Assembly: GCA_028716385.1 (NCBI GenBank)
Contig: JAQUPX010000001.1
Coordinates: 282,775-346,774 of the forward strand
Origin: a bacterium
GTDB lineage: Bacteria > Hydrothermota > UBA3073 > JACQXS01 > JAQTXJ01
Direction of reading: 5' to 3'
DNA: 64,000 nt
Positions 6,513-36,040 of the stretch are shown in pieces. Made by a program: the position numbers and the translations under genes. The notes under the pieces are model-generated. The model ran no database searches. It saw only the letters and a list, made by a program, of their open reading frames with translations, and was not told the origin of the DNA. Position 1 is the first letter of the stretch, and each line of letters starts with the position of its first letter.

Positions 6513-7199
6513 ATGACTTACAAACTTAAAATCCTAATCGTTTCAATAATTATATTTTCAGGAACAAACACCTTTGCGGATTCTTCCTCTTTTTCTGTTA
6601 ATTCTCCAATAACTAATACCCAATTACCTAATACCCTAATAACTAATTCCGTCTGTAATTTTTCTCCTTCCATCGGTCTCAAAGCGAGCGACTTGGTGAT
6701 AGCTGATGCGTGGAAAGGGAATTACTTATTTTTAGCTGAGTCTTCCGAAGGAGAGAACCCTGTAATTAAAAATGATGAATATTTGGGATGTTGTTTGGGA
6801 GGATGTACGTTTGGCAAACTAAATCCCAGGATAAAAAAACCGAAAAATTCCTGGGTGATAACGGAACCGTTGGGTGGGATTGCGGGTGGCGCTTTCGGTA
6901 TGCTTATTTTTGGCGGACTAGGCGTGGTTATTACTGGTTTTGAGGGGTATGATGTTGTTGGACTTTACGGTTTAATATTTGGATATATAATCGGAAGTCC
7001 GTACGGTATTTGGGCAACGGGCAAACTTATTGAAAAGGAAAAAGGATCTTTAAATCGTACAATGTTGGGAGGAATGTTGGGAGGATTAGGTGCAATGATA
7101 ATTTGCAATTCGAACGTAGATGGAGTGATTAAAACCGGTTCAATACTTGCCCTTCCTTTCGCAGGCGGGTTAATCGGTTATCGTATGAGTTTGAAATAA
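6513..7199 (+). CDS. glycine-zipper membrane protein, tandem paralog 5 of 5
   Basis: 228 aa; IGLKASDL, WVITEPLGGIAGG, GIWATGKLIEKEKG, YRMSLK. Confidence 0.55.
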   Translation: MTYKLKILIVSIIIFSGTNTFADSSSFSVNSPITNTQLPNTLITNSVCNFSPSIGLKASDLVIADAWKGNYLFLAESSEGENPVIKNDEYLGCCLGGCTFGKLNPRIKKPKNSWVITEPLGGIAGGAFGMLIFGGLGVVITGFEGYDVVGLYGLIFGYIIGSPYGIWATGKLIEKEKGSLNRTMLGGMLGGLGAMIICNSNVDGVIKTGSILALPFAGGLIGYRMSLK

Positions 7200-13544: not shown

Positions 13545-15725
13545 ATGCGAAATGTTTTCAGGAGTGTTTTTGTCGGGATAATGCTTATCCCGTTTATTTT
13601 ATCCGGCGAACAAAAAATCGCCGCCCGGTCAGTAAGAATTCAGCAGGATAATGTTTTTGAAACAAAAGGCGGAACAAAAACGGGCGTTCCGTCAGAGATT
13701 AACTACCAGGGATGGCTTGGCGCTGCAGATACATCGGCGGTGACAGGAAAACTTAATATGGTATTTAAAATTTATACCGCATCAACAGGCGGGACATTAT
13801 TATGGACAGAGCAAGACAGCGTGCAGGTGAGCAAAGGGATATTCAACGTATTACTTGGCAGCGTAACGCCTATACCGGACAGTATTTTCAACAACACGTC
13901 TCTTTATCTTGAGACACAAGTTGACGCGGACGTTTTAGAGCCGAGGAAAAAACTTACAAGCGTCGGTTATGCAATAAAATCAAAACATTCGGACAATGCA
14001 ACTCGAGCGGACACCGCGACTTACGCAATCAACGCCAACGTTCAGTACGTGGATTCGGCGAGAGTAGCGGCTACGGCTTATGCCTTGACGGATACGACTG
14101 CTTTCAACGACAAATATGTGAGTGTATCCGGCGACACAATGACGGGGCCGTTTGTTGCTTCGGCGAATTCGGCCGATAATTTGGTTTCTTCAATCCAGGC
14201 AGGCGTAGGCAAAGCAGGGTATTTCGAGATAGCCAATATTACAAATGCAAATGACGTGGTATATAATTACACAACCGGCACGGGAAACGCCGGTTTATTC
14301 CGGATAAACAATGCCGTAAATTCGAACAATGCGGTATACGGGATGACGAATGGCGCCGGGCATGCGGTATATGGTTATACGAACGGCACGGGGAATGCGG
14401 TACGCGCGACTACAATCGGAGCCGGGGATGCGCTGTATAGTTATACGACCGGTACCGGGGGCGCGGGATATTTTAATATAAACAATGCTTCAAATGCGAA
14501 CAATGTAGTATATGGGACTACGAATGGCGACGGGGATGCAATATCCGGATATACGACCGGAGCCGGGCATGCGGTATACGGGCAGACAAATTCCAGCGGG
14601 GATGCTGTATACGGTTATACGAACGGCACGGGCAGGGCAGCGTTATTCCAGATAGGGAATGTTTCAAATGCAAGCGATGCTTTGTATACTTATACAAACG
14701 GCACGGGAAAAGCGGCGTATTTTGAGATAGGAAATGTCGCGAGTTCAAGTCCTGTGGTGCATGCGTATACAAACGGCACGGGAAACTGCGGGTATTTTTC
14801 GATAGCCAATGCTTCGAATTCAAACAACGCAGTCTATGCTTCTACGAGTGGAAACGGGCATGCGATACAGGGGTATATGGCAGGAACGGGCACCGCGGGG
14901 TATTTTTCGGTAAACAATGCCGCAAGCGCAGGCGAGGCAATAGCCGCAACTACAATCGGAACGGGCAGGGCGGGGTATTTTTCGATAAGCAATGCCACGA
15001 ATCCAAGTTCCGTAATATATGCGACTACAAATGGAAACGGAGTAGCAGGGCATTTCCAGGTAAGCAATGTTTCAAGTTCAGGCCCTGCGCTGTATGGGGT
15101 AACGAATGGCAGCGGGGAAGCCGTGTACGGGTCAGGGAGCGGAAGCGGGATTGCGGTACGCGGGAGCACAAACGGAACGGGTAGGGCAGGATTTTTCCAG
15201 ATAACAAATGTTTCAAATTCAAGCGATGTGTTGTATGGAACTACGGACGGAAGCGGGAACGTGGTGCATGGTTATACAAGCGGAACGGGCAGGGCGGGGT
15301 ATTTCCAGATAAACAATGTTTCAAATTCGTCAGATGTAATTTATTTAACGTGCAACGGGACGGGGAATTTCATAAATACGTCTAAAAGCGGTTGTTACCT
15401 TGACAAAGACGGTGTATGGCATACTCCAAGCAGTCGTGAACTCAAAGAAAACATAGAAGAACTCCGTGCGGATGAAGCGATGAGTGCGGTTGAAAAGTTG
15501 AATCCGGTTAAATTCAATTACAGGAAAGGTGGAGGAGAAAGCTATGTAGGGTTTATCGCTGAGGACGTGCCCGACCTGGTAGCAATGAAAGACAGGAAAT
15601 CTTTATCGCCGATGGACATAGTAGCGGCTTTGACGAAGGTAGTGCAGGAACAGCAGAAAAGCATACAGGCGCAGCAAAAAGAGATAAACGCATTAAGGGA
15701 AAAAGTAGACCGGCTAACAAAATAA
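13545..15725 (+). CDS. secreted fibre-like repeat protein with C-terminal intramolecular-chaperone (peptidase S74 / endosialidase-chaperone-like) domain
   Basis: 726 aa; AGGAGG upstream; signal-like N-terminus; about 20 copies of a ~21-aa unit (YTNGTGxAGYFxIxNxSNxxxVVY); C-terminal SSRELKENIEEL...LNPVKFNYRK...GFIAEDVPDLVA...coiled-coil tail fits the tail-fibre chaperone pattern SDxRLKxNI...PVxF...GFIAQEV..PxLV. Confidence 0.7.
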   Translation: MRNVFRSVFVGIMLIPFILSGEQKIAARSVRIQQDNVFETKGGTKTGVPSEINYQGWLGAADTSAVTGKLNMVFKIYTASTGGTLLWTEQDSVQVSKGIFNVLLGSVTPIPDSIFNNTSLYLETQVDADVLEPRKKLTSVGYAIKSKHSDNATRADTATYAINANVQYVDSARVAATAYALTDTTAFNDKYVSVSGDTMTGPFVASANSADNLVSSIQAGVGKAGYFEIANITNANDVVYNYTTGTGNAGLFRINNAVNSNNAVYGMTNGAGHAVYGYTNGTGNAVRATTIGAGDALYSYTTGTGGAGYFNINNASNANNVVYGTTNGDGDAISGYTTGAGHAVYGQTNSSGDAVYGYTNGTGRAALFQIGNVSNASDALYTYTNGTGKAAYFEIGNVASSSPVVHAYTNGTGNCGYFSIANASNSNNAVYASTSGNGHAIQGYMAGTGTAGYFSVNNAASAGEAIAATTIGTGRAGYFSISNATNPSSVIYATTNGNGVAGHFQVSNVSSSGPALYGVTNGSGEAVYGSGSGSGIAVRGSTNGTGRAGFFQITNVSNSSDVLYGTTDGSGNVVHGYTSGTGRAGYFQINNVSNSSDVIYLTCNGTGNFINTSKSGCYLDKDGVWHTPSSRELKENIEELRADEAMSAVEKLNPVKFNYRKGGGESYVGFIAEDVPDLVAMKDRKSLSPMDIVAALTKVVQEQQKSIQAQQKEINALREKVDRLTK

Positions 15726-17108: not shown

Positions 17109-18596
17109 TTACTTCACAACTACTATTTTCGATGTGCAGTTTTGTCCGCAAGCGGACAGTCTTGCGAGGTATACGCCGGAGGTAAACCCTGTCGGCGTCC
17201 ATTCTAATGTATATTCACCGGGAACCTTATTTGTGTTTAAAAGAGTTTTAACCAATTCGCCTGCAGTGTTATATATCCTTAAACATACATCGGAATTTTT
17301 TGGTATGGAGTATCTGAAAAGTAATTTGTGGTTAGAGAGTTGTGCATATAATCTAGGCGTTTCCCGAGAATAAACTTTTTCCTGAACACCGGCTATACAT
17401 CCTCCATCCAGGACTTTCAAAATTCCTGTTCCTCCGATTACCACTTCCAATTGCCCGTCCCCGTCTACGTCTCCGATTGAAGGGTCGCTGTCTCCGGCAG
17501 AACTATTGCCAAATTCCCATAGAAGAGTTCCGTCATTATTGAGTCCGCGTATTATTGTATCGTTAGAGGCAAATACTATTTCGGGTTTATCGTCACTGTC
17601 CAAATCGCCAATCGCAGGGCATGACCATATGTGACTTCCCGTTGCATAACTCCAGAGCACTGAGCCATCTTCACCGTTGAGAGCGTAAAAGTTGAAATCA
17701 TCGGAGCCAAATACTATTTCAGGTTTAGTGTCGTTATCCAAATCTGCAATCGCAGGGGAAGAGCGTACGGAACCTCCTGTCGTCGTGTAGCTCCAAAGTA
17801 AAGAACCGTCTTCTCCGTTGAGAGCGTAGAAATCGAATGAGCCGACAACTATCTCGAGTTTAGTATCGTTATCCAAATCTGCAATCGCCGGGGAAGCGCT
17901 AACTCCTATTGGATAACTCCAGATAAGCGAACCATCTTCACCATTAAGAGCATATAATTTATTGTCGCCAAGAACTACCTCAAGTTTAGTATCGTTATCC
18001 AAATCCGCAATTGCAGGCGAAGACCATATGTAACTTCCCGTTGCATAACTCCAGAGTACTGAGCCGTCTTCACCGTTGAAAGCGTAGAACGTATAATCCA
18101 GGGAGCCAACAGCTATTTCAGGTTTACTATCGTTATCCAAATCCGCAATCGCGGGGGAAGACATTACCCGATTTCCTGTCTTATAACTCCAGAGCAGGGA
18201 GCCGTCTTCAGTATTGAGGGCATAAAGTTGGCTGTCATAGGAGCAGACAACCACCTCGAGTTTAGTGTCCCCGTCTAAATCCCCAAGTGCAGGGCAAGAG
18301 CATATTTTACCCGACGTTGTATAGCTCCATATTACTGAACCGTTTTCTCCATTGAAATTATATATTTTATTGTCTATGTCATTACCGGAAATTATTTCAG
18401 GGATGTTATCATTATTTATGTCTACAATTGCAAATTTAGCGAATCCCTCGTTAGGGGTTTGCCATTTGATTCTCATAGAATCGGAAGTTAAGCATCCTTT
18501 GAGTTCAGGTTGAAAACCAGTATTTTGCAGGTCATGATGGAATTTCAGCCATTCTCCGGGCAAGGTCAAAAGGCAAATAAGAAATATATTCAACAT
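17109..18596 (-). CDS. propeller-repeat (PQQ-like / FG-GAP-like) protein with T9SS C-terminal tail; inverted paralog of 29316-30824
   Basis: 495 aa; repeating IADLDNDTKxEVVxGSxDxxLYALNGEDGSxLWSYxTG units; C-terminal sorting tail; N- and C-terminal regions about 80-90 percent identical at nucleotide level to 29316-30824 on the other strand. Confidence 0.65.
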   Translation of the reverse strand: MLNIFLICLLTLPGEWLKFHHDLQNTGFQPELKGCLTSDSMRIKWQTPNEGFAKFAIVDINNDNIPEIISGNDIDNKIYNFNGENGSVIWSYTTSGKICSCPALGDLDGDTKLEVVVCSYDSQLYALNTEDGSLLWSYKTGNRVMSSPAIADLDNDSKPEIAVGSLDYTFYAFNGEDGSVLWSYATGSYIWSSPAIADLDNDTKLEVVLGDNKLYALNGEDGSLIWSYPIGVSASPAIADLDNDTKLEIVVGSFDFYALNGEDGSLLWSYTTTGGSVRSSPAIADLDNDTKPEIVFGSDDFNFYALNGEDGSVLWSYATGSHIWSCPAIGDLDSDDKPEIVFASNDTIIRGLNNDGTLLWEFGNSSAGDSDPSIGDVDGDGQLEVVIGGTGILKVLDGGCIAGVQEKVYSRETPRLYAQLSNHKLLFRYSIPKNSDVCLRIYNTAGELVKTLLNTNKVPGEYTLEWTPTGFTSGVYLARLSACGQNCTSKIVVVK

Positions 18597-22224: not shown

Positions 22225-22314
22225 AGTTTTCTATCTTTCTCTTTTAATGCAAAACATATCCGTTGTCAAAAAAACACCCTCAATTCTGTCCAAAATTCAT
22301 GAATCTTAGAATCT

Positions 22315-24177
22315 TTAGGTCTTCTCACTCAGTTGATTAAGCATTTTTTCCTGTGAAATTTTTACGGCCGCCATTTTTTCCCTTAATGCTGAATGTAGAT
22401 GGCTCCATGTTTCAAAATCACACTCTTCTCTAAGTTCACATTCATTACATCTAAAACATCTTGGGAGTTTTAGCCCGCTAAAAAAGTTGTATTCAATATT
22501 TTTAATAATTTTTTCTACTAATTGTTGCGAATAGAAAATCTCAAGTTTTTCTTTTGCCATTTTAGTATTATAATTCTTAAGCTTTTTTAAAACCAAATAA
22601 TCTCTTATCGCTGAAAAATAAGTAATTTCTTCCTCGTTGTTTTTTATATTTCCGGACGATAGTATATTAATAAATTTTTGCAATTCATATATCGCTTTTT
22701 TATATGAACCGGTAACTAAATGCAAAAACGAAAGTAGTAAAACAGGATTTATTCTGCTCCATTGAGAATCCCATTTACGCAAAGGGAGCCATGTAAAAGG
22801 GAGGATATTATTTATTTTATAGGGAGTCTTATATACGCTGTTGTTAACCAGTTCTTTGATTTCTTTGAATTCATCAATTTTTCTTTTATCTAAATCTATA
22901 AATAAATTATTTTTTTCTATTTTTTCTTTATGTAATTCTAACTCCTTCCATGAAGCTCTTCTGGAGTTAGTCCCCGGTACAATAACTTGATAACTTGGAA
23001 ATCCCAAAAAAGATACATCTCTTATAAATATAGGTCCTTTTGTTGCTCTATGTAATATATTACACATACGTTGATAGTGTAGTTTATTGTTAAATTTGTT
23101 ATTTGTGTTTGCCGACAAAGTACTATTATAAGATGGTTTTCCAAAGAAAAAACTGTTTGGATAAGCACCGTCATTCGTTTTTAGCAAGTTAAAAAAGTTG
23201 TTAGACCATCCGCCATTATTAATTTTTTGTTCGAATAATAAATCTTTTAAGTTTACTTTCGTTCCGCTTTTGTAGTCCAAAATATGTCTACCTTGAAATG
23301 TTTCTGTAATGGCGCGGGAAATAGCCTCATCTATATTAGGATGCGACCCAAAATTTACATGGTAGCTGCCTTTCCTTTTATCGTGCGCTATGACAGCAAC
23401 AACAGGCAACGCCATATTTAGAGAACAATCTTTAATTGAAATATGGAAATTACTATTTTTTTCTATTTCCTCAATCATAATCTTTAAGTGTGGGGAACGA
23501 GATATACAACTTTTGTTTAATTCCGGGGGAGTTAATTGCTTGTGGTAAATAACATCCATACAGTGCCTTTCACTTACTTCGCTCATCCCTTGCACCAATG
23601 CTTCGTAAATATTATTCCCGGCGCACATCCCCGTAGAACCATAATGATACCTTATCATCTCCAATGGCAAAAAAACAATTTTTCCGCTAATCACATCCGC
23701 AAATGGAATGCATAGCAATTTTCCTTCGTATGAAAAAAAATCCAGCCATTTTTCGGCATCCCCTTTCTGTCTGTCACACGGAGCAAAATTTCTTAACAAA
23801 TTCTTGTCGACAGACTTAACAAATTGGCGCGGTGTTAAAAATATTTCATCCGGGGAATAAATAAAATCAGAAATCTTATGCAGTGTTTTATAGTTTAATA
23901 TAAAACTATTATGATTTGCGGTGTTGAATTGATTTTGTATTCTTTCCATTAGTTCCGCATAAGCGCTGGCAAGCGCCGCTTCTTTTGACATCCCCTTCCC
24001 GTTTGAACCAATAAAACTATCATTAAAACTAATGCGTACCGAATATAAAGAATCTCCATTCTTATACCACCTGTCTTCATTAATCAAAACTCCTATTTTG
24101 TAAAAAATGTTTCTTATACGAGTTATAGTTTCTATGGGTTTTACATCTTTATATAAAACTGTCTGAACCTTTTCCAT
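22315..24177 (-). CDS. ycaO: YcaO-domain protein, full-length E. coli YcaO-type
   Basis: 620 aa; SVRISFNDSFIGSNGKGMSKEAALASAYAELMERIQNQF matches the YcaO ATP-binding core (GKG...AxxSAxxExxER); further blocks YHYGSTGMCAGNNIYEALVQGMSEVSERH and FGSHPNIDEAISRAITETFQGR line up with E. coli YcaO along its length. Confidence 0.85.
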   Translation of the reverse strand: MEKVQTVLYKDVKPIETITRIRNIFYKIGVLINEDRWYKNGDSLYSVRISFNDSFIGSNGKGMSKEAALASAYAELMERIQNQFNTANHNSFILNYKTLHKISDFIYSPDEIFLTPRQFVKSVDKNLLRNFAPCDRQKGDAEKWLDFFSYEGKLLCIPFADVISGKIVFLPLEMIRYHYGSTGMCAGNNIYEALVQGMSEVSERHCMDVIYHKQLTPPELNKSCISRSPHLKIMIEEIEKNSNFHISIKDCSLNMALPVVAVIAHDKRKGSYHVNFGSHPNIDEAISRAITETFQGRHILDYKSGTKVNLKDLLFEQKINNGGWSNNFFNLLKTNDGAYPNSFFFGKPSYNSTLSANTNNKFNNKLHYQRMCNILHRATKGPIFIRDVSFLGFPSYQVIVPGTNSRRASWKELELHKEKIEKNNLFIDLDKRKIDEFKEIKELVNNSVYKTPYKINNILPFTWLPLRKWDSQWSRINPVLLLSFLHLVTGSYKKAIYELQKFINILSSGNIKNNEEEITYFSAIRDYLVLKKLKNYNTKMAKEKLEIFYSQQLVEKIIKNIEYNFFSGLKLPRCFRCNECELREECDFETWSHLHSALREKMAAVKISQEKMLNQLSEKT

Positions 24178-24224
24178 AGTTTTAACTAATTCCCCTCATC
24201 TCCCTATCCGCCTTATTCTTTTCT

Positions 24225-24651
24225 TTTAATCTCTCCAATCTATTACCAACCCTTGATTTATCTAGGGATGGTTATCCAGCTCTGCTGGAAAATCTCCAAT
24301 CCAAAATCCAAAATCTATTACTTGCCTGCCCCGTACATTTATTGCACAGGGGCGCTCACTTGGTAGCCGCAAGCTTTAGCTTGCGCCTGTCCACCTTTTG
24401 TTTTGGCGGAAAGCGGGGAAGAATCTCGTTTTTCCCCTTCGCCCTTTGCTCTTCTCGCTCCTCCGTATCTCCCCAATTCGCATTCCAAAATCTTTTTTTT
24501 CAGTATCTTTTAATTCCCCAATTCCTTCTTTTAATCCGTTCAATCCCCAATCCCTGCCTACCGGTCAGGCAGGCAAAATCTAAAATCTATTACCAGCCCT
24601 TGAGTTATCTAGGGATGGTTATCCAGCTCCGCTGTGGCTGGAAAATCCGCC
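24225..24651. repeat. repeat-rich intergenic region containing remnants of T9SS-linker coding sequence
   Basis: Two copies of CTATTACCxxCCCTTGAxTTATCTAGGGATGGTTATCCAGCTCxGCTG (about 24235-24290 and 24585-24640); AATCCAAAATCCAAAATC and CCCTGCCTACCGGTCAGGCAGGCAAAATC blocks match coding sequence at 33585-33625; GGTAGCCGCAAGCTTTAGCTTGCGC hairpin at about 24360. Confidence 0.45.
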
Positions 24652-26370
24652 CTATCCCTCGTTTTCTATTGTTTGAAATAAATGCTGGTATAAGATATTC
24701 GTTTGTATCAATTCTCTGTGCGTCCCCGATGTAACAAAATTCCCCTTATCAAGAACTATCGTCCTGTCCGCTAAAAGCATCGTTTCTTTTGAATGACTGA
24801 TAACTATCGTTATTCTGTCGTCTTTGCCGTCTATTAAAACATTATGTATCGCTTTAATGTTGTTCGCATCAAGTCCTGCCGTGGCCTCATCCAACAGCAA
24901 TACGTCCGGTTTTTTTAGAAAAGCCCGCGCTATCGCCAGCCTCTGTTTTTGCCCGCCACTCAGATTTCCACCGCTTTCATTAAGTTTATGATTCAACCCG
25001 TCTTCTAATTGATTAATGAATTCCATTGCCTGGGCCCTTTTTAGAACAGTATCAATTTCTTCATCGGTTGAATTTAACTTGCCCATAGAAATGTTCTCTT
25101 TTATCGTTGCTAAAAATAAAAAAGGCGCCTGTTGCACTATTGCTATTTTATTCCGATACGAATCCAGGGATATTGAATTGATGTTAATGCCGTTTGCGCT
25201 TATCTCACCTTTCTCCGGCATATATACCCGCTGCAATAACTTAAATATCGTCGTTTTCCCCGCCCCGCTTTCCCCTACTAATGCTATGATTTCACCTTTC
25301 TTTGCGCTGAAAGAAACATTCTTAAGACCAAAATCATCCTTTTCGGAATATGAAAAACAAACTTCTTTAACGTTGAGCGTTTCTATGCTTTCAATATCAA
25401 TGCCTTCTTTCTTCTCCTGCTCTATAGAGAATAATTCCTGCACTCTTTTTATACAACTTTTCCCCGTTTGAAGAGATATGTTAAGATTCGTTAACCCGGA
25501 CGTTGAACTGAATACTTGCACCATAAGCATATTAAACGCAAAGAAACTGCCAAAAGTAAGCTCCCCTTTAATTATCAGGTATCCCCCCAGCCATATTAAT
25601 ACGACCTTCCCCAGGGTCGAACTTAGTTGCCCCAGCACAGATGGCTTGCAGGAATATACGAACCGTTCAATTGCAATATTAAACAACTCTGTTAATTTTT
25701 TAGCATACCTGCTTATAATTTCTTTTTCTGCTCCTAAATATTTTATTTCCAGACGCCCGGAAATGATTTCGTTCAAATAAAAAGTATTATTTGCTTTCTT
25801 CTCCAGCATTTTTATCGTTCTCTGGTTCATCCCGCGATTAAATAGCTTTAAAGAAATGGCAAAAATCGGGAGTATACTGAAAAACACTAAAGATAACGTA
25901 AGATTAAACTTCGCAATGATTATCACGCTAACTACAAGCGTAATCGCATCTTTTGTTAAATTTAACATATCGTCTATAAAAAACGTATTAACTCCTTCCA
26001 AATCTCCCTCTATTCGTCCCGTAAGATATCCCGACCCTTTTTGAGATAATTCTTTCCAGTTGGAATTAATAATTCGTCCCAATAATATTGACTTTAAATA
26101 GTTCCCGAAACCATACTTCAGGCAATTTGCCATATAAGTATCAAAAATGCTTATCCCTATAAGGCAAACTTGAGCAGCCAATATCGCAATAGCCCATTTT
26201 GTTAAAAGAAGATAGTCTTTAGAAGGCAAAACAATATCAAGGATATGTTTTGTCAGGAGCGGAATTATAACGACTAAAGCGACTTTCAATATGTTCCCAA
26301 CAACAATAAGTAGTGATGATGAAAAAGCAATCCCAAAAAAATATTTACCTGCTAATTTTCTTACTTTCAT
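24652..26370 (-). CDS. ABC exporter, fused permease-ATPase (no N-terminal C39 peptidase domain)
   Basis: 572 aa; N-terminal half with multiple hydrophobic helices; Walker A GESGAGKTT, signature LSGGQKQRLAIARAF, Walker B VLLLDEATAGLD; start overlaps the rSAM stop by 4 nt. Confidence 0.85.
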   Translation of the reverse strand: MKVRKLAGKYFFGIAFSSSLLIVVGNILKVALVVIIPLLTKHILDIVLPSKDYLLLTKWAIAILAAQVCLIGISIFDTYMANCLKYGFGNYLKSILLGRIINSNWKELSQKGSGYLTGRIEGDLEGVNTFFIDDMLNLTKDAITLVVSVIIIAKFNLTLSLVFFSILPIFAISLKLFNRGMNQRTIKMLEKKANNTFYLNEIISGRLEIKYLGAEKEIISRYAKKLTELFNIAIERFVYSCKPSVLGQLSSTLGKVVLIWLGGYLIIKGELTFGSFFAFNMLMVQVFSSTSGLTNLNISLQTGKSCIKRVQELFSIEQEKKEGIDIESIETLNVKEVCFSYSEKDDFGLKNVSFSAKKGEIIALVGESGAGKTTIFKLLQRVYMPEKGEISANGININSISLDSYRNKIAIVQQAPFLFLATIKENISMGKLNSTDEEIDTVLKRAQAMEFINQLEDGLNHKLNESGGNLSGGQKQRLAIARAFLKKPDVLLLDEATAGLDANNIKAIHNVLIDGKDDRITIVISHSKETMLLADRTIVLDKGNFVTSGTHRELIQTNILYQHLFQTIENEG

Positions 26371-27731
26371 AGTTTGTCCTTATAGATGAGTTTCATTATC
26401 CCACACTGGTATTCATCCGGAGTATATAAATTGCCGTTTGCCAATAAAGCAGCCCCCGGACACATTTTACAATAATTCTTTATACTACATATATTACACG
26501 TTTTCAAATCGTCTACTTTAATATTATGATGCATTCTTATTTCATCACTTCCCCATATCTCATCTATTGATTTGTTTCTAATGTTTTGACTCCCGTACCT
26601 CAATGTTGCACACGGGAAAACGTTCCCCTTAGCATCTATTGCAAAACTATAAGCTCCGGAATAACAATTTGCTGAATTTGGCCCCCTAATATCCTCTTCT
26701 TGTTGCAAACTCTCTCTTCCCACTTTGTTAATTAACCAATCAATCTGTGATAAAGAACAGAAAACATTTTGATTCATATTTCTATACAATCCTTTTCTCA
26801 TTTGGGTAATGTCGTAAGTATATCTTAAACCATAAGATGCGCATAATTTTTCCATTGCGGGAATCTGCCGGTAATTCATCGCCAAAACTGGGGTTTTAAT
26901 ACGGATGCGCATATTAGTTTTAGAAAGTATGGGAAGTAAAGTTTTTATATGCTCTGAGGCAGTTACTCCGCAAATCTCTTTATAAGTTTTTTCATTAGCT
27001 CCCAAAACGCTAATTTCTAACTTGTATACCCCAAGAGATTCCAAATGTTTTATAAGAGCCTTATTCAATAAATACCCATTTGTAAAAACTACTACTGCAA
27101 AATTTCTATCTATTGCCATCTTTATAATATTAAGAAAATCTTTTCTTATAAGAGGTTCTCCCCCTGAAATTGTAACTCTTAAACACTTTTTTTCTTTGAG
27201 CCAATTTAATATCTCTATAATTTCATTTAGTGAAAGGTCTTCGGATGTTTTTGATTTTTTACTTGGTATTTTGTTATAGCAATGTATACATTGGAAATTG
27301 CACATAGATGAAACCTCTATAAATGCCGACATAGGAAGTTTTTCTCCGGCATATAATCTACGTATTTTCTTAGAATCTAATATCTGCTTAGCATTAAATA
27401 GTTTTTCATTTTTGTTTGATTGGGATTTCATTATTTGTTCTTTATCAACAAACAAAATACTTTCGGCATTTAACCAATTTATTATTAATTTTATATTATC
27501 AACAATAAACTTGTGCGATATAATTATTTTCTTTTTATACGCTAAAGAAATTATATTTTTTTCAATCTTATTCTTGCTATTACCTTTTAAAAAAGAGTAT
27601 ACTATTAGTGCCCCAATTCCATTTATAAGGCTATAGCTATCTGTTTTTTTATTAAAAACAATTGCTTGATTTAGATTTTTAAAATATCTACAAATAAAAA
27701 TCTTATTTAATCTCGACATTTTTAGTCCCAT
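26367..27731 (-). CDS. radical SAM enzyme with C-terminal SPASM domain and ~130-aa N-terminal extension (possible peptide-recognition, RRE/PqqD-like)
   Basis: 454 aa; CNFQCIHC (CxxxCxxC) cluster; glycine-rich SAM motif VTISGGEP; C-terminal Cys cluster CNICSIKNYCKMCPG typical of SPASM; N-terminal region before the rSAM core is a small alpha/beta unit. Confidence 0.8.
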   Translation of the reverse strand: MGLKMSRLNKIFICRYFKNLNQAIVFNKKTDSYSLINGIGALIVYSFLKGNSKNKIEKNIISLAYKKKIIISHKFIVDNIKLIINWLNAESILFVDKEQIMKSQSNKNEKLFNAKQILDSKKIRRLYAGEKLPMSAFIEVSSMCNFQCIHCYNKIPSKKSKTSEDLSLNEIIEILNWLKEKKCLRVTISGGEPLIRKDFLNIIKMAIDRNFAVVVFTNGYLLNKALIKHLESLGVYKLEISVLGANEKTYKEICGVTASEHIKTLLPILSKTNMRIRIKTPVLAMNYRQIPAMEKLCASYGLRYTYDITQMRKGLYRNMNQNVFCSLSQIDWLINKVGRESLQQEEDIRGPNSANCYSGAYSFAIDAKGNVFPCATLRYGSQNIRNKSIDEIWGSDEIRMHHNIKVDDLKTCNICSIKNYCKMCPGAALLANGNLYTPDEYQCGIMKLIYKDKL

Positions 27732-27780
27732 CAGTATTTTACTTTTTTAATACATTATAAAATTAATAATCTACTCCTTG

Positions 27781-27803
27781 TGTACACCTGTAAAAGGTGT
27801 ACA
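27781..27803 (-). terminator. perfect 9-bp-stem hairpin between small ORF and rSAM gene (possible attenuator)
   Basis: TGTACACCT-gtaaa-AGGTGTACA, 17 nt downstream of the small-ORF stop and about 50 nt upstream of the rSAM start. Confidence 0.4.
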
Positions 27804-27819
27804 CAAGGATGCAATACAA

Positions 27820-27963
27820 TTACATAAGGACCATTGTACAATTATCCGTCATGTCAGTTTCATCTTCATTCAATCTACTAGGCCCTATACGTCTTGCTAA
27901 TTTCCCTGGTGTTGTCCCAGCCTCAATAGTTACGGTACTTTCAATTTTTGTTAGTTCAAACAT
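27820..27963 (-). CDS. unannotated 47-aa ORF, candidate precursor peptide
   Basis: Minus-strand ATG at 27963 with AAGGAGGTGA 8 nt upstream; translation MFELTKIESTVTIEAGTTPGKLARRIGPSRLNEDETDMTDNCTMVLM; stop TAA at 27820-27822; sits directly 5' of the rSAM-ABC operon on the same strand; below the 60-aa track cutoff. Confidence 0.35.
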   Translation of the reverse strand: MFELTKIESTVTIEAGTTPGKLARRIGPSRLNEDETDMTDNCTMVLM

Positions 27964-27990
27964 TTTTTCATCACCTCCTTTTTCACATAG

Positions 27991-28073
27991 CAATCACTTT
28001 AAATGTATGTCAAGAGAATTGCAAGAAAAAATCCTAGTAAAATATTAGGATTTCTAGTAAAATATTAGTATCC
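27991..28073 (-). promoter_or_regulatory. promoter/operator module with tandem direct repeats (CTAGTAAAATATTAG x2), -35-like TTGACA and a TTTAAAGT box
   Basis: Minus-strand reading: TTTTACTAGAAATCCTAATATTTTACTAGGATTTTTTCTTGCAATTCTCTTGACATACATTTAAAGTGATTGC, just upstream of the RBS of the small ORF; about 80 percent identical to 61715-61794. Confidence 0.45.
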
Positions 28074-28272: not shown

Positions 28273-29046
28273 CTAAAACGCTTTTTGTCCCAGAATAGTC
28301 ATATTGAAAGAATTAGTATTGAATTTGTTTTCTTCAAGATTAGGATTGACCGAATCGCCATAGACTGCCTTAATGCTGATGTTGACTTCGCGAAACATTT
28401 TTTCTATGTCCCCATAAGAATAAACTTTAATTTTTTGTTTGGGGTATTCGTATGAATTATTCCCTTCAATAACTGTCGTGTTGACGGTAAAAATACTTTG
28501 CAAAACATCAAAAGCGTTCTCTACTATAAAAGTTTTTTCCCCGATTTTATACCTGTCTTTTTTTAGCAGCTTCGGAATATATTGCAAGTTAAATAAATCC
28601 AGAAGTAAATGTCCCTGCGGTTTTAACAAACCCGATATGAGATTTAGCGCCTTCATATTTTCTTTGTCCGACAAAAGACCGAAACTGATGTCCATCATAT
28701 AGACAGCATCAAACCTACACTTGAAACAAGGCGAAAGCATATCCCCGCAAACAAAAGAAGCGCTTAACTTCTTTCTCCCTGCCTCTGCCATTCCGGATTT
28801 TAAAAGCACAAAAGAGTAATCCATCCCTACGACGTTTTCGTATTTCCTTTTCGCAAATTCTATAATATGTCTTCCGTCCCCACATCCTAAATCCAACACC
28901 GCCGTTTCTTTACGTATATTCAAAACTTTTTCAAGGAAGTCCGTCTGGGCAACTGTCACGGCAAGGGATTCTCTCCACCCGTTTTCATACCTGAGCGCGT
29001 AAAGCTCCTTCCACCATTCCTTTGAATATCCTTTTTTCATTGTCAT
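28273..29046 (-). CDS. class I SAM-dependent methyltransferase
   Basis: Motif I VLDLGCGDGRH and downstream acidic/hydrophobic motifs; track ORF extends to 29199 but the likely start is MTMKKGYSK at 29046. Confidence 0.7.
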   Translation of the reverse strand: MTMKKGYSKEWWKELYALRYENGWRESLAVTVAQTDFLEKVLNIRKETAVLDLGCGDGRHIIEFAKRKYENVVGMDYSFVLLKSGMAEAGRKKLSASFVCGDMLSPCFKCRFDAVYMMDISFGLLSDKENMKALNLISGLLKPQGHLLLDLFNLQYIPKLLKKDRYKIGEKTFIVENAFDVLQSIFTVNTTVIEGNNSYEYPKQKIKVYSYGDIEKMFREVNISIKAVYGDSVNPNLEENKFNTNSFNMTILGQKAF

Positions 29047-29278
29047 CTTAAAACCCCAACCTAACTCACTTTCATCGGTTGAAGCGGTCCCCCAAAGCAC
29101 TACATTAACATACAAATAACACAATTTAAAGTTGTGTCTACAATTACTTTTTTCGGCACGCAAGATGTCCCATTTAAAATCCTGACTGCCGTCAGGCAAG
29201 TTATCGGACTATGCCCATTCTGCTTTCCTTTTTTAAAAATATTGTAGGGACAGCCTCCCCAAAAAAAATGCTTATTCC

Positions 29279-29315: not shown

Positions 29316-30824
29316 ATGTTAAACATTTTTCTTATCTGTCTTCTCAACCTCCCCGGCGAATGGCTCAAATTCCATCACGACCTCCAAAACACAGGTTTCC
29401 AATCTGAACTCAAAGGATGCTTAACTCCTGACTCCGTCAGAATCAAATGGGAAACTCCTAATTTGGGATTCGCCAAATTCACAATTGTAGATATAAATAA
29501 TGACGGCATTCCTGAAATAATTGCCGGTAATTACTATGACTATTCAATATATAATTTCAAAGGGGAAGACGGTTCGGTAATATGGAGTTACGAAACAGGA
29601 AGCAAAGTGTCCTCTACTCCTGCGATTGCAGATTTGGATAACGATACTAAACTTGAGATACTTGTTGGCTCAAGGGATTATAATTTATACGCTCTCAAGG
29701 GTGAAAATGGGACACTGCTCTGGAATTATACAACAGGAGGTTCTGTGTATTCTTCGCCAACGATTGCGGATTTAAATAACGACAGTAAACTTGAGGTAGT
29801 TGTTGGCTCTGGCGATTTTACACTATATACGCTCAACGGAGAAGATGGTTCTCTACTCTGGAGTTATACAACAGGAGGGAGTATAATATCTTCACCTGCA
29901 ATTGCGGATTTGGATAACAACGCTAAACTTGAGGTAGTTGTTGGGTCCGATGATTCTACGCTGTATGGCCTAAATGGAGAAAATGGCTCACTACTCTGGA
30001 GCTATAAAACAGGAAATTGCATAGAGTCTTCGCCGGCAATTGGGGATTTGGATAACGACACTAAACCTGAAGTAGTTTTTGGCTCTGTGGATTCGACGTT
30101 GTATGCTCTCAATGGCGAAGATGGCTTACTACTCTGGAGTTATACAACAGGAGGTTCCGTATACTCTTCGCCGGCAATTGGGGATTTGAATAACGACAGT
30201 AAACTTGAGGTAGTTGTTGGATCATTTGACCATAAACTGTATGCTCTCAATGGAGAAGATGGCTCATTGCTCTGGAGTTATGGAACAGAGAATTGGATAT
30301 ACTCCTCGCCAGCAATTGGGGATTTGGATGGTGATGGGAAACTTGAGATAGTATTTGCCTCTTGTGATACAATAACAACAGTATACGGACTCAACGACGA
30401 TGGCACTCTTCTATGGACATTTAACATTTATTCTGCTGGAGACAGCGACCCTTCAATCGGAGATGTAGACGGTGACGGACAACTAGAAGTAGTAATCGGG
30501 GGAACGGGTTATTTAAAAGTTCTGGATGGAGGATGCATAGCCGGCGTTCAGGAAAAAATTGATTCTAAAGAAACCCCTAAACTCCATACACAAATCTTCG
30601 GGCGCAAATTACTTTTCAGATACTCCATACCAAAGAAATCCGACGTCTGTTTACGAATATATAACACTGCAGGCGAATTAGTTAAGACTCTTTTAAACAC
30701 AAATAAAGCCCCCGGTGAATATACATTAGAATGGACGCCGACAGGTTTTGCCTCAGGCATCTACCTTGCAAGACTATCCGCTTGCGGAGCAAACTGCACG
30801 TCAAAAATAGTAGTCGTGAAGTAG
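29316..30824 (+). CDS. propeller-repeat (PQQ-like / FG-GAP-like) protein with T9SS C-terminal tail; inverted paralog of 17109-18596
   Basis: 502 aa; same repeat architecture and near-identical first ~60 and last ~100 residues as 17109-18596. Confidence 0.65.
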   Translation: MLNIFLICLLNLPGEWLKFHHDLQNTGFQSELKGCLTPDSVRIKWETPNLGFAKFTIVDINNDGIPEIIAGNYYDYSIYNFKGEDGSVIWSYETGSKVSSTPAIADLDNDTKLEILVGSRDYNLYALKGENGTLLWNYTTGGSVYSSPTIADLNNDSKLEVVVGSGDFTLYTLNGEDGSLLWSYTTGGSIISSPAIADLDNNAKLEVVVGSDDSTLYGLNGENGSLLWSYKTGNCIESSPAIGDLDNDTKPEVVFGSVDSTLYALNGEDGLLLWSYTTGGSVYSSPAIGDLNNDSKLEVVVGSFDHKLYALNGEDGSLLWSYGTENWIYSSPAIGDLDGDGKLEIVFASCDTITTVYGLNDDGTLLWTFNIYSAGDSDPSIGDVDGDGQLEVVIGGTGYLKVLDGGCIAGVQEKIDSKETPKLHTQIFGRKLLFRYSIPKKSDVCLRIYNTAGELVKTLLNTNKAPGEYTLEWTPTGFASGIYLARLSACGANCTSKIVVVK

Positions 30825-34414: not shown

Positions 34415-36040
34415 TTATCTCATTAGAATCAATTTCTTTGTTTCTCTGTAATTATCCGTTTTTAACTTCACAAAATAAATCCCTGTTTTTAGGTCTTTTG
34501 AGTTATTATCGGTACCATCCCAGGTGACAGTGGTCATTGGGGAATTAGGTAATTGAGTTATTGGGAAACTCTTTACTAATTTGCCGGCAATGTCGTAAAG
34601 TTTCAAGGAACAGTCCCGACTGTTCCCTACGGAGAAGGAAATGACTGTTGATTTTGAGAATGGATTTTTGTTTACCCTAAGCGTAGTCGAAGGGGGAGTG
34701 ATGTTTACTTTTTCCTGTATGCCCATTTTTTCGTTAGTTTTATAATGATACCCCATATCTACATATTTTTTATCAAAGACCGAGTCAGTTCTTGTTGTGT
34801 AAAGATGGAACCCCAAATCTTCTGCAAGCGTGTCTCCTGCCTCTACGCAAGGGCTTTCGACTGCTTGTCCTGCCGCTATCTGACTAAGGAAAAACGAATC
34901 TGCGCCCGATATTGCAAACATTGGGGGGCGGGAAATATTATAAAAACTATCACAAGGAATTCCGTTGCGATTTACACCCCAAGTCGTATCTCCGACTCCC
35001 GGACAAAAAACAAAATTTCCGGCCGAATTACCCCAAACGTTATTAAAAGCAATAAGAGAAGGAGTGATTTGACCACAATTATAACAATCTATCCCATATC
35101 CCGAACAACTAACAATAATATTATTAAGAATTACTGCGGGAGAAGGTGACTGACTGAGCCAGACCTGAGTAGGAGGAGCAGAACCGGAAGACCACGTCGT
35201 ATTATTTGAAATAGTATTATTTATAACGAAACTATTAGAGCGACATATATCAATTGCATAAGCGCGTTGAGATATGTTTCTACATATAAGATTGTTTTTT
35301 ATGGTATCAGACGAGGAGACACATCTTATTCCTCCGCCATCGAACCAAACTGAATTGTTTTTTATAATATTCCCAAATATTATAGAGCCTGTATTGGAGT
35401 CAAGATAAATGCCTCCGCCATATCCTCCTCCAATGGGTGTCACTGAGAAAAGCCCGCCATTTCCAACTATTTGATTATACATTATTTTAGCTCCATTAGA
35501 ATGACCACAATAAATAGCTGACCCTAAATGCCCTTTATTGCCTGATAAAACATTAAAGGTGATTTTAGTTGCCCCGCCCAAACAGCAAATTCCACCGCCG
35601 TTAGAGGAAATGGACCCATTTACAAAATTATTAAGTATCTTGTTATTGGTAATGGTAAGATAAGAATTATAACAATATATACCGCCTCCAACACTATCAG
35701 TAACATATCCCCATTGGATTGTAAAACCGGAAATTATTGTGTTGGAATCAAGAGTATTGCAGTTAAAAATCCTATTAGTACTATCCGCATCAACTATCGT
35801 AGAATCCGCACCTTTCTCGCTCATCAAAATTACCCCATTTTCCATATTTATCGGGAAAGTTTCTCCGGATGCCGTGTCGTAAATTCCCGGGGCTACGAGA
35901 ACAGTATCGCCATATTTAGCCGAATCTTCAACTGCATGTTTTATTGTTGAAATATATGATGGAACATACCATATTTTTGCCTGCAAAGAGTTAACCACAA
36001 ATAATAAGGTTGTAACAACAAAACAATTTACTCTTTTCAT
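34415..36040 (-). CDS. right-handed parallel beta-helix repeat protein with T9SS C-terminal tail
   Basis: 541 aa; repeated GGGIYxxNSxxTIxNNxIxNN units typical of pectate-lyase-fold repeats; C-terminal sorting tail. Confidence 0.65.
   Translation of the reverse strand: MKRVNCFVVTTLLFVVNSLQAKIWYVPSYISTIKHAVEDSAKYGDTVLVAPGIYDTASGETFPINMENGVILMSEKGADSTIVDADSTNRIFNCNTLDSNTIISGFTIQWGYVTDSVGGGIYCYNSYLTITNNKILNNFVNGSISSNGGGICCLGGATKITFNVLSGNKGHLGSAIYCGHSNGAKIMYNQIVGNGGLFSVTPIGGGYGGGIYLDSNTGSIIFGNIIKNNSVWFDGGGIRCVSSSDTIKNNLICRNISQRAYAIDICRSNSFVINNTISNNTTWSSGSAPPTQVWLSQSPSPAVILNNIIVSCSGYGIDCYNCGQITPSLIAFNNVWGNSAGNFVFCPGVGDTTWGVNRNGIPCDSFYNISRPPMFAISGADSFFLSQIAAGQAVESPCVEAGDTLAEDLGFHLYTTRTDSVFDKKYVDMGYHYKTNEKMGIQEKVNITPPSTTLRVNKNPFSKSTVISFSVGNSRDCSLKLYDIAGKLVKSFPITQLPNSPMTTVTWDGTDNNSKDLKTGIYFVKLKTDNYRETKKLILMR

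Follow-up and report, generated by a model that had tools for sequence, protein, structure and literature searches.

Does the short open reading frame (ORF) on the minus strand at positions 27820–27963 of the DNA presented here encode a substrate for the radical S-adenosylmethionine (rSAM) enzyme whose gene follows it? The DNA, referred to below as the window, is a stretch of 64,000 nt from a bacterium of the GTDB lineage Hydrothermota (contig JAQUPX010000001.1, positions 282,775–346,774; GenBank assembly GCA_028716385.1). A first-pass annotation, made from the letters of the sequence, had proposed that the ORF encodes the precursor of a peptide that is made by ribosomes and then modified post-translationally (a RiPP) and is followed by an attenuator. 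Our analysis indicates that the ORF is very probably a genuine unannotated RiPP precursor gene, with a probability of about 0.8. It is, at 0.82, the first gene of a cassette that further encodes an rSAM/SPASM maturase with a RiPP recognition element (RRE), an ABC exporter, and an Escherichia coli-type YcaO protein.

The ORF runs from ATG at 27963 to TAA at 27822–27820, and its 47 codons translate exactly into MFELTKIESTVTIEAGTTPGKLARRIGPSRLNEDETDMTDNCTMVLM, the product first proposed. As had also been noted, it immediately precedes the co-oriented rSAM gene, with 100 nt between the peptide stop codon and the rSAM ATG at 27719. The Shine-Dalgarno (SD) site AAGGAGGTGA (27971–27980, minus strand) is separated from the ATG by a spacer of 7 nt (TGAAAAA), not of 8 nt as previously given. 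The strength of SD sites was expressed as the predicted pairing energy with a generic anti-SD sequence and was calculated for 50 ORF starts in the window. The duplex formed by AAGGAGGTGA ranked first with −19.6 kcal/mol, followed by a runner-up of −15.6 kcal/mol, in agreement with its earlier description as the strongest ribosome-binding site of the window. The term "unannotated" was correct for GenBank, in which the rSAM protein (MDD5528672.1) and the product of the next upstream gene (MDD5528673.1) have consecutive accessions and no CDS is annotated between them at the ORF. It does not apply to the Logan and ENA assemblies, on which gene finders had already called the same 47-aa product.

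The rSAM enzyme is a rare protein. Among 1.84 billion representative proteins, an exhaustive search with HMMER turned up only a handful of close relatives, and DNA was recovered for all of them. The comparison set covers every close rSAM relative whose upstream DNA could be read and consists of five loci: the window, L003, L093, L007, and L092, the last four counted as four independent lineages. Across the recovered lineages, the rSAM proteins are 39–56% identical to that of the window. In each of the four, an ORF of 40–47 aa with the same N- and C-terminal motifs is located upstream of the rSAM gene, so that the ORF is conserved at the syntenic loci, a point on which the proposal had been made to depend. 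The peptide of L003, which has a close rSAM relative, is 85% identical to that of the window. The other upstream peptides are MFEPTEIEETVAENPDSRSGSISMGRNEVTDHTDNCTMCL in L093 (rSAM 56% identical), MFEDTEITSTDVVQDGVLRAQQNWANEDVNHTDNCAATVP in L007 (39%), and MFDETVIETTDTTKGDVVWNSLCHFNEEVNHTDNCAATVP in L092 (43%).

Alignment of the five peptides revealed the signature MF[ED]xTxIxxT ... NE-x3-4-[HM]T[DA]NC followed by 4–5 residues. Ten residues are invariant and form two blocks, separated by a variable linker with insertions and deletions. The N-terminal leader motif MF[ED]xTxIxxT (residues 1–10; 27934–27963, minus strand) contains M1, F2, T5, I7, and T10. The core motif NE-x3-4-[HM]-T-[DA]-N-C (residues 32–42; 27838–27870, minus strand) contains N32, E33, T39, N41, and C42 and precedes a hydrophobic tail of 4–5 residues. 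The Cys, Thr, and Asp of the core proposed initially fall within this conserved C-terminal block. The peptides of L093 and L092 have one extra, non-conserved Cys each besides the invariant C42, and Tyr is absent from all five.

Over the aligned codons, the ORFs of the window and L007 have only 46% DNA identity, yet 16 of 40 residues are identical; nine of the shared residues, spread over the whole peptide, use different codons (including AGT/TCC for Ser). Of 11,716 real small ORFs taken from 88 loci, that of L007 came out on top, with a score of 54 against a background with a maximum of 42, a mean of 17, and a standard deviation of 4. This score was not reached by any of 20,000 shuffles. For the window and L003, dN/dS amounted to 0.21 when calculated in the frame of the peptide, compared to about 1 in the two remaining frames of that strand.

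Similarity of this kind could also be expected if the real gene were the overlapping plus-strand ORF at 27797–28048 (83 aa) and the minus-strand ORF were its mirror image. The plus-strand ORF has wobble positions in common with the peptide frame and mirrors its similarity; therefore, dN/dS alone cannot separate the two frames. The window, L003, L093, and L007 all leave it open, and the window and L007 resemble each other in its translation as well (BLOSUM score 46, rank 1). The decisive evidence came from L092, where this ORF is interrupted by two stop codons: every antisense frame is closed in at least one of the five loci, and the sole frame that is open in all of them is the sense frame of the peptide. 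In both the window and L003, two stops fall into the codon-aligned antisense frame. The plus-strand ORF owes its openness to the peptide's lack of Tyr and small number of His and Gln codons. The sense frame also scores higher than the antisense one (BLOSUM 72 vs. 46), and its start and stop positions are conserved, while the ends of the plus-strand ORF are not. In addition, the plus-strand ORF starts with GTG inside a hairpin, would cross the SD site and the putative promoter of the peptide gene, and has an SD pairing energy of only −1.7 kcal/mol, consistent with the earlier remark that it lacks the signals of the minus-strand ORF. We consider a plus-strand gene hardly credible.

Searches for further members of the peptide family gave negative results of differing weight. 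BLASTP produced no alignment between the peptides of the window and L007, short peptides giving no seeds. A strict degenerate DNA pattern requiring MFE and NED found no match in the JGI metagenomes; this pattern was too strict, as L092 has MFD and NEE and L093 has NEV. With the peptide profile, no similar small ORF was detected beside more distant rSAM relatives. An enzyme-based metagenome scan, a genome scan, and a plasmid tblastn search yielded only relatives with about 25–30% identity over the catalytic core, and no related small ORF was located beside these. The peptide was not matched by any Pfam or NCBIfam model.

The strong translation signal is a common feature of the family. In the five loci, the SD sites of the homologous ORFs range from −18.1 to −19.6 kcal/mol, whereas those of the rSAM starts reach only −2.5 to −13.0 kcal/mol (−5.9 kcal/mol in the window). 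The peptide and rSAM genes are separated by an RNA hairpin (27775–27809, minus strand) with the loop UUUAC, which starts 11 nt past the stop codon. Its perfect stem (27808–27795/27789–27776) consists of 14 bp, or 15 bp counting U27809–A27775; the perfect hairpin reported previously is thus real, but its stem is longer than the 9 bp given. In the window, the fold of this region has a z-score of −5.7 and was equaled by none of 200 shuffles. Perfect stems were found at the same position in the other loci, with 14 bp in L003, 16 bp in L093, 14 bp in L007, and 11 bp in L092. Their sequences are unrelated, the z-scores of the five hairpins are −3.0 to −6.3 (0 of 200 shuffles in each case), and they start 11–22 nt past the peptide stop. 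As all five loci have a hairpin and the sequences are unrelated, the order of precursor, hairpin, and enzyme proposed in the first-pass annotation is a conserved one. The only change in the L003 stem relative to the window, C-G to U-G, keeps RNA pairing and breaks DNA symmetry; hence, an RNA structure is more likely than a DNA operator.

The latter distinction is relevant to the possibility that the whole region is a structured 5′ untranslated region of the rSAM gene, with the inverted repeat acting as a DNA operator and the ORF being fortuitous. The window and L003 are nearly identical in the non-coding DNA surrounding the ORF as well, and a weak promoter-like match (9/12) overlies the palindrome at 27794–27766, although shuffled sequence yields matches of this kind just as often. 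However, the ORF, its SD site, and both motifs persist in L007, L092, and L093 despite otherwise unalignable DNA. The hairpin sequences differ wholly between lineages, which speaks against a shared operator, as does the loss of DNA symmetry in L003. We consider this explanation highly improbable.

A second possibility is that the ORF is a regulatory leader peptide, at which a ribosome stopping 11 nt before the hairpin controls the expression of the rSAM, ABC, and YcaO genes, and that the peptide itself is not a substrate. In all loci, the hairpin is near enough to the stop codon to be affected by a terminating ribosome; no leader peptidase is present, and the very strong SD site would suit a translation sensor. 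What makes this very unlikely is the kind of conservation observed. The identity of residues is maintained, with ten invariant positions and synonymous codon changes next to enzymes that are merely 39–56% identical, and the two conserved blocks with a variable linker are arranged as in leader-plus-core precursors. No regulatory codon run and no alternative antiterminator pairing were seen. Moreover, the enzyme, with its predicted RRE for peptide binding, requires a peptide to act on, and no further small ORF is conserved that could fill this role.

For a precursor gene, the most economical reading of the hairpin together with the difference in SD strength is a device that keeps the precursor in excess, possibly by partial termination or by stabilization of a short precursor mRNA. 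A terminator scan reported nothing at the hairpin of the window, and no U-run follows its stem. The lack of a U-tract is common to all five loci; therefore, the hairpins are not canonical intrinsic terminators, and the label "attenuator" or "leaky terminator" suggested for the window hairpin should be used with caution. For the 20–32 kb region, Rfam yielded no known RNA family, neither a riboswitch nor a leader. In RiPP and cofactor operons, hairpins are known to separate the precursor gene from that of the enzyme, as in nisA/nisB, sboA/albA, and pqqA/pqqB, although our literature searches returned no citable precedent for them. The likeness to these systems lies in a stable stem-loop right after the structural gene, whose ribosome-binding site is much stronger. 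The difference is that the five hairpins described here have no U-tract, which makes intrinsic termination doubtful; processing or mRNA stability is equally possible.

Upstream of the SD site, a putative promoter could be read from the sequence at 27984–28013 (minus strand). It consists of a perfect −35 element TTGACA (28013–28008), an 18-nt spacer, and a weak −10-like element TATGTG (27989–27984). The −10 element matches the consensus at 3 of 6 positions, and the block was not reported by a consensus promoter scan; it is almost unchanged between the window and L003. A promoter at this place, just upstream of the ORF, would drive the operon. Further upstream, an AT-rich hairpin with a U-run (28027–28055, minus strand) forms the left-hand boundary of the segment shared with L003. 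With z = −1.2, it is not stronger than shuffled sequences, which is weak evidence, and it may be a terminator or an insulator against upstream transcription. The region 28027–28067 (minus strand) as a whole comprises this hairpin and a direct repeat, CTAATATTTTACTAG, in two copies. The second copy, the hairpin, and the downstream block are kept in L003, and the homology between the window and L003 begins there. The repeat/hairpin region could act as a terminator or insulator or as a regulator-binding site.

The gene downstream of the peptide (26367–27719, minus strand) encodes a radical SAM/SPASM peptide maturase of 450 aa (454 aa if the alternative ATG at 27731 is used). Pfam domains Radical_SAM, Fer4_12, and SPASM were identified, with the CxxxCxxC motif and the full set of SPASM cysteines; C140, C144, C147, C352, C370, C408, C411, C417, C420, and C439 are conserved in the family. 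The best structural matches were RiPP maturases, including SuiB, ChlB, SkfB, PqqE, and CteB (PDB entries: streptide maturase SuiB, 5v1q; sactipeptide and ranthipeptide maturases SkfB, 6efn, and CteB, 5wgg). The protein has an N-terminal extension of about 130 aa. In the AlphaFold2 model (pLDDT 86.7), residues 8–85 form three strands followed by three helices, after which come the rSAM barrel and the SPASM domain. The β3-α3 topology of the N-terminal domain had its best structural matches in TbiB1 and TfuB1, the structures of which were solved with bound leader peptides. A profile of the family's N-terminal domains against the PDB also placed TfuB1 and TbiB1 on top (E = 0.014 and 0.075, respectively). 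The enzyme is thus predicted to carry an RRE of the β3-α3 winged-helix type at approximately residues 1–90 (27450–27719), and the N-terminal domain is probably the peptide-binding domain that had been expected there. The conserved, alternating N-terminal segment of the peptide would be its obvious ligand.

Downstream of the rSAM gene, the cassette continues with genes for an ABC exporter and an E. coli-type YcaO protein. The first-pass annotation had overlooked the latter as a part of the same operon. The gene of the ABC exporter (24652–26370, minus strand; 572 aa) overlaps the rSAM gene by a start/stop ATGA. Pfam ABC_membrane begins at residue 20 of the protein and is accompanied by ABC_tran; the membrane domain starts directly, and a C39 peptidase domain is absent. 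An ABC gene occupies the same position in L011, L092, and L094, and the ABC protein of the window is 48% identical to the product of the gene following the rSAM gene of L007. The fourth gene (22315–24177, minus strand) encodes a YcaO protein of 620 aa (Pfam YcaO, 178 bits). Its best relative among solved structures is PDB 4q84 (E = 3e-29). It aligned end to end with the NCBIfam model YcaO_for_S12 with 207 bits (cut-off 700) and matched TOMM_cyclo_SagD with 68 bits (cut-off 219). The protein is 37% identical to the YcaO of L092 over the full length and 64% identical to that of L011 over 50 aa. At its C-terminus, a CX2CX2CX5C motif is conserved, CFRCNECELREEC in the window (22315–22450) and CPNCDQCSVSINC in L092 (8780–8926). 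This motif could be a metal or Fe-S site; E. coli-type YcaO proteins are not known to carry it.

The full order of peptide, rSAM, ABC, and YcaO genes was found in L092. In L007, the peptide, rSAM, and ABC genes were seen, and L093 showed a partial order. L011, which originates from the same sample as L093, contains the rSAM and ABC genes and the N-terminus of YcaO, with the ABC stop codon overlapping the YcaO start. An ABC–YcaO overlap is also present in L092. Since both genes overlap in L011 and L092, the gap between them in the window is explained as an insertion of 475 nt (24178–24651), located outside the conserved cassette. It is GC-richer than the cassette and contains a 56-nt direct repeat, whose copies (24232–24287 and 24579–24634; 91% identical) are the only two in the window. 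Possibly, the insertion is a repeat or mobile element of small size, by which the translation of YcaO is uncoupled from that of ABC. The GC content of the cassette (22300–28050) is 28–37%, compared to 39–47% in the flanks, and the genes left of the cassette differ among the window, L003, and L092. The AT-richness and the differing left-hand genes suggest that the cassette was moved horizontally. An SAM methyltransferase gene upstream of the ORF (28273–29199) was considered as a cluster member and rejected, as L003 and L092 have unrelated genes at this place. Neither the window nor L092 has a gene for an E1-like partner, a dehydrogenase, or TfuA within the cassette or next to it, and no protease gene was found nearby.

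A further possibility is that the small peptide genuinely belongs to the cassette but has another function (for example, immunity, chaperone, or signaling) and that the true substrate is encoded elsewhere. The chemistry proposed for the peptide is a prediction, and a single Cys and a missing protease are atypical of the well-known rSAM RiPPs. Nevertheless, the ORF is the first in the operon, has by far the highest translation signal, is 40–47 aa long, and has a conserved C-terminal motif, as do the precursors of rSAM RiPPs. In L092, the cassette is found among unrelated genes, and no other conserved small ORF accompanies it. A non-substrate role therefore appears unlikely. The precursor reading is in keeping with the generic features of RRE-dependent rSAM-SPASM RiPP systems, four of which were found: a co-oriented adjacent small ORF conserved with the enzyme, a two-part precursor, a predicted RRE, and the CxxxCxxC and SPASM cysteines. 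A further feature of such systems, the modification of the peptide by the enzyme, is predicted.

Several points weigh against the interpretation of the ORF as a RiPP precursor gene. It is based on sequence and predicted structure. The family is tiny, with four independent lineages among about 15 billion proteins, and the motif statistics rest on five sequences. A profile built from the window and L003 only ranked the L007 peptide first, but with E = 3.4 and no power. The Pfam PqqD model did not match the N-terminus of the rSAM protein, and its RRE rests on the predicted structure and weak profile matches. No NCBIfam equivalog cut-off was reached by the rSAM protein, and the best models (AhbD, NirJ, MftC, WgkB, PqqE, and StsB) remained several-fold low: 83 bits vs. 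a cut-off of 650 for WgkB, 57 vs. 625 for StsB, 83.5 vs. 265 for MftC, and 75 vs. 381 for PqqE. Neither the SCIFF model nor any other sactisynthase or ranthisynthase equivalog was at its cut-off. There is no leader peptidase in the cassette, no C39 domain in the ABC protein, and no GG motif in the peptide. A U-tract was found after the hairpin in 0 of 5 loci. With a single core Cys, the classical multi-bridge chemistry of sactipeptides and ranthipeptides, the cores of which mostly contain several Cys, appears excluded, and the reaction is not predictable from the sequence.

Among the more distant rSAM relatives, two were rejected as members of the family. The first, P0136 of L008 (2973–8389), is a full-length relative with 26% identity from a Gammaproteobacteria metagenome-assembled genome and is part of a cluster of the lasso type, whose precursor is another one. 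The gene of P0136 follows the lasso-type genes Transglut_core3 and Asn_synthase, and the different candidate precursor is located at 2973–3176. The gap before the rSAM gene (6740–6970) is filled with about 11 tandem copies of the 22-nt unit GTCGCGGGAATGACGGAGGTCT. The second, L094 (172–4022), whose rSAM protein is 36% identical, is devoid of both the RRE and YcaO. The rSAM relative begins at the CxxxCxxC motif and is followed by an ABC exporter and by a TolB-like protein in place of YcaO. We regard L094 either as a reduced form of the system or as another variant of it.

Further observations concern the window outside the peptide and rSAM genes. A sub-threshold Rfam match to an SAM/SAH riboswitch within the YcaO coding region (22755–22802, minus strand; 20.5 bits vs. 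a gathering score of 40, E = 0.72) is most likely due to chance. The region is flanked by two paralogs of about 500 aa of the FG-GAP/β-propeller type in opposite orientation (17109–18596, minus strand, and 29316–30824, plus strand). At least the plus-strand paralog has a T9SS C-terminal sorting domain, and another protein with a T9SS tail is encoded at 34415–36040. A 726-aa protein encoded at 13545–15725 (plus strand) has a C-terminal Peptidase_S74 (endosialidase chaperone) domain, which is typical of phage tail fibers or spikes.

The system can be compared with several known ones. The closest described system is the itf cluster, reportedly the work of Clark and Seyedsayamdost in 2022. In Bacteroides thetaiotaomicron, this cluster encodes the precursor ItfA, the rSAM/SPASM enzyme ItfD, the YcaO protein ItfB, and the transporter ItfE (PMC11002830, PMC10352776); P. 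gulae BGC8 is related to it (PMC10352776). An Ile-Trp cross-link is formed there by the rSAM/SPASM enzyme and a C-terminal amidine by YcaO (PMC11002830, PMC10352776). In both systems, a precursor, an RRE-bearing rSAM/SPASM enzyme, YcaO, and an ABC-type exporter are clustered. An extra Fe-S-related domain is described for the itf YcaO, and the YcaO of the window has the conserved CX2CX2CX5C end. The itf precursor ends in Ile-Thr-Phe (ITF) and has a Trp for the Ile-Trp cross-link and a GG leader. In the peptides described here, Trp is not conserved, the ITF tail and the GG motif are missing, and TxNC and NE are invariant instead. The itf transporter possesses a C39 peptidase domain and a TonB partner, and the ABC protein of the cassette has neither. 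This distinction from itf is based on the published description of the cluster (ItfB, WP_004319383.1; ItfD, WP_004319392.1).

Two groups of single-Cys rSAM/SPASM RiPPs also resemble the family: the NxxC family with a Cys-to-Asn β-thioether (PMC13361665, PMC10288494) and the enteropeptins, in which KgrA with its single Cys acquires a thiomorpholine sactionine (PMC10288494, PMC13361665). The precursors are likewise short peptides in which a single Cys is conserved close to the C-terminus, shortly after a conserved Asn (and Thr); an rSAM/SPASM maturase is encoded directly downstream, and an exporter is present in the operon. The family described here differs in that its motif is T-x-N-C, with Asn adjoining Cys, not N-x-x-C or KGR, and that no Rgg/SHP regulator is present. 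Furthermore, YcaO is integral to our cassette, which was found in uncultured non-streptococcal bacteria. No NCBIfam model related to the NxxcB type was above its cut-off for the rSAM protein.

The E. coli YcaO (PDB 4q84) is an accessory factor in the RimO-dependent methylthiolation of ribosomal protein S12. The YcaO of the window shares its C-terminal domain architecture, and in both cases YcaO is paired functionally or genetically with a radical SAM enzyme. Unlike E. coli YcaO, it stays at 207 bits below the cut-off of 700, has a SPASM enzyme and not a methylthiotransferase as its partner, and is encoded in a peptide-exporter operon rather than standing alone. An azoline-forming (TOMM) or thioamide YcaO system was rejected on the basis of the SagD score (68 vs. 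219 bits) and the lack of an E1-like, dehydrogenase, or TfuA partner. A mycofactocin or PQQ precursor was rejected as well, the rSAM protein being below the MftC and PqqE cut-offs and the five peptides having no Tyr, the residue contained in the motifs of those precursors (C-terminal Gly-Val-Tyr or Glu-x3-Tyr). We conclude that this is very probably an rSAM+YcaO RiPP cassette with a new precursor family.

The following mechanism can be proposed. Transcription of the operon would start from the promoter just 5′ of the ORF. Given the near-perfect SD site of the precursor and the weak one of the rSAM gene in all five loci, the precursor would be translated far more than the enzymes. The hairpin 11 nt past the stop codon may raise this excess, either by partial termination or because a short precursor mRNA is shielded from 3′ decay. 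The MF[ED]xTxIxxT segment would then bind as a strand to the predicted winged-helix RRE of the rSAM protein, and the rSAM/SPASM enzyme would modify the core NE...[HM]T[DA]NC. The most likely product of this step is an intramolecular thioether from Cys42 to T39, N41, or N32/E33. The single-Cys systems NxxcB and KgrC, together with CteB and PapB, suggest this product by analogy, with much lower confidence than for the precursor gene itself. YcaO may make an ATP-dependent backbone change, a thiazoline at N41–C42 or an amidine or thioamide in the C-terminal tail. A thioether from C42 combined with a YcaO backbone modification is our best guess, again at much lower confidence. Finally, the ABC transporter would export the product, and the leader would be cut by a protease encoded elsewhere or kept.

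For the deposited genome, the analysis adds a missing gene, and with the signature of the precursor, further members of this rare rSAM+YcaO peptide family can be sought. The peptide is very probably the founding member of a rare, uncharacterized family of modified peptides. According to the literature retrieved, itf is the one biochemically characterized rSAM+YcaO RiPP system (PMC11002830, PMC10352776), and the cassette has a different precursor, a different transporter, and probably a different chemistry. If the chemistry is an ordinary thioether, the cassette would be one more uncharacterized RiPP cluster among thousands. A tentative and less likely alternative is a new RiPP class, in which the RRE-SPASM rSAM enzyme and a non-TOMM YcaO of the E. 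coli type, with its C-terminal four-Cys site, jointly act on a T-x-N-C core with a single Cys to give an undescribed cross-link or backbone modification. The biochemical role of YcaO alongside RimO in E. coli is still unclear. With four genes and a substrate of 40–47 aa, the cassette is small enough for direct heterologous reconstitution. Its pairing of a YcaO of the E. coli architecture with an rSAM enzyme on a defined peptide could help explain this branch of the YcaO family. If the new-class proposal is true, the small portable substrate could make the partnership of an E. coli-type YcaO and an rSAM enzyme directly testable in vitro.

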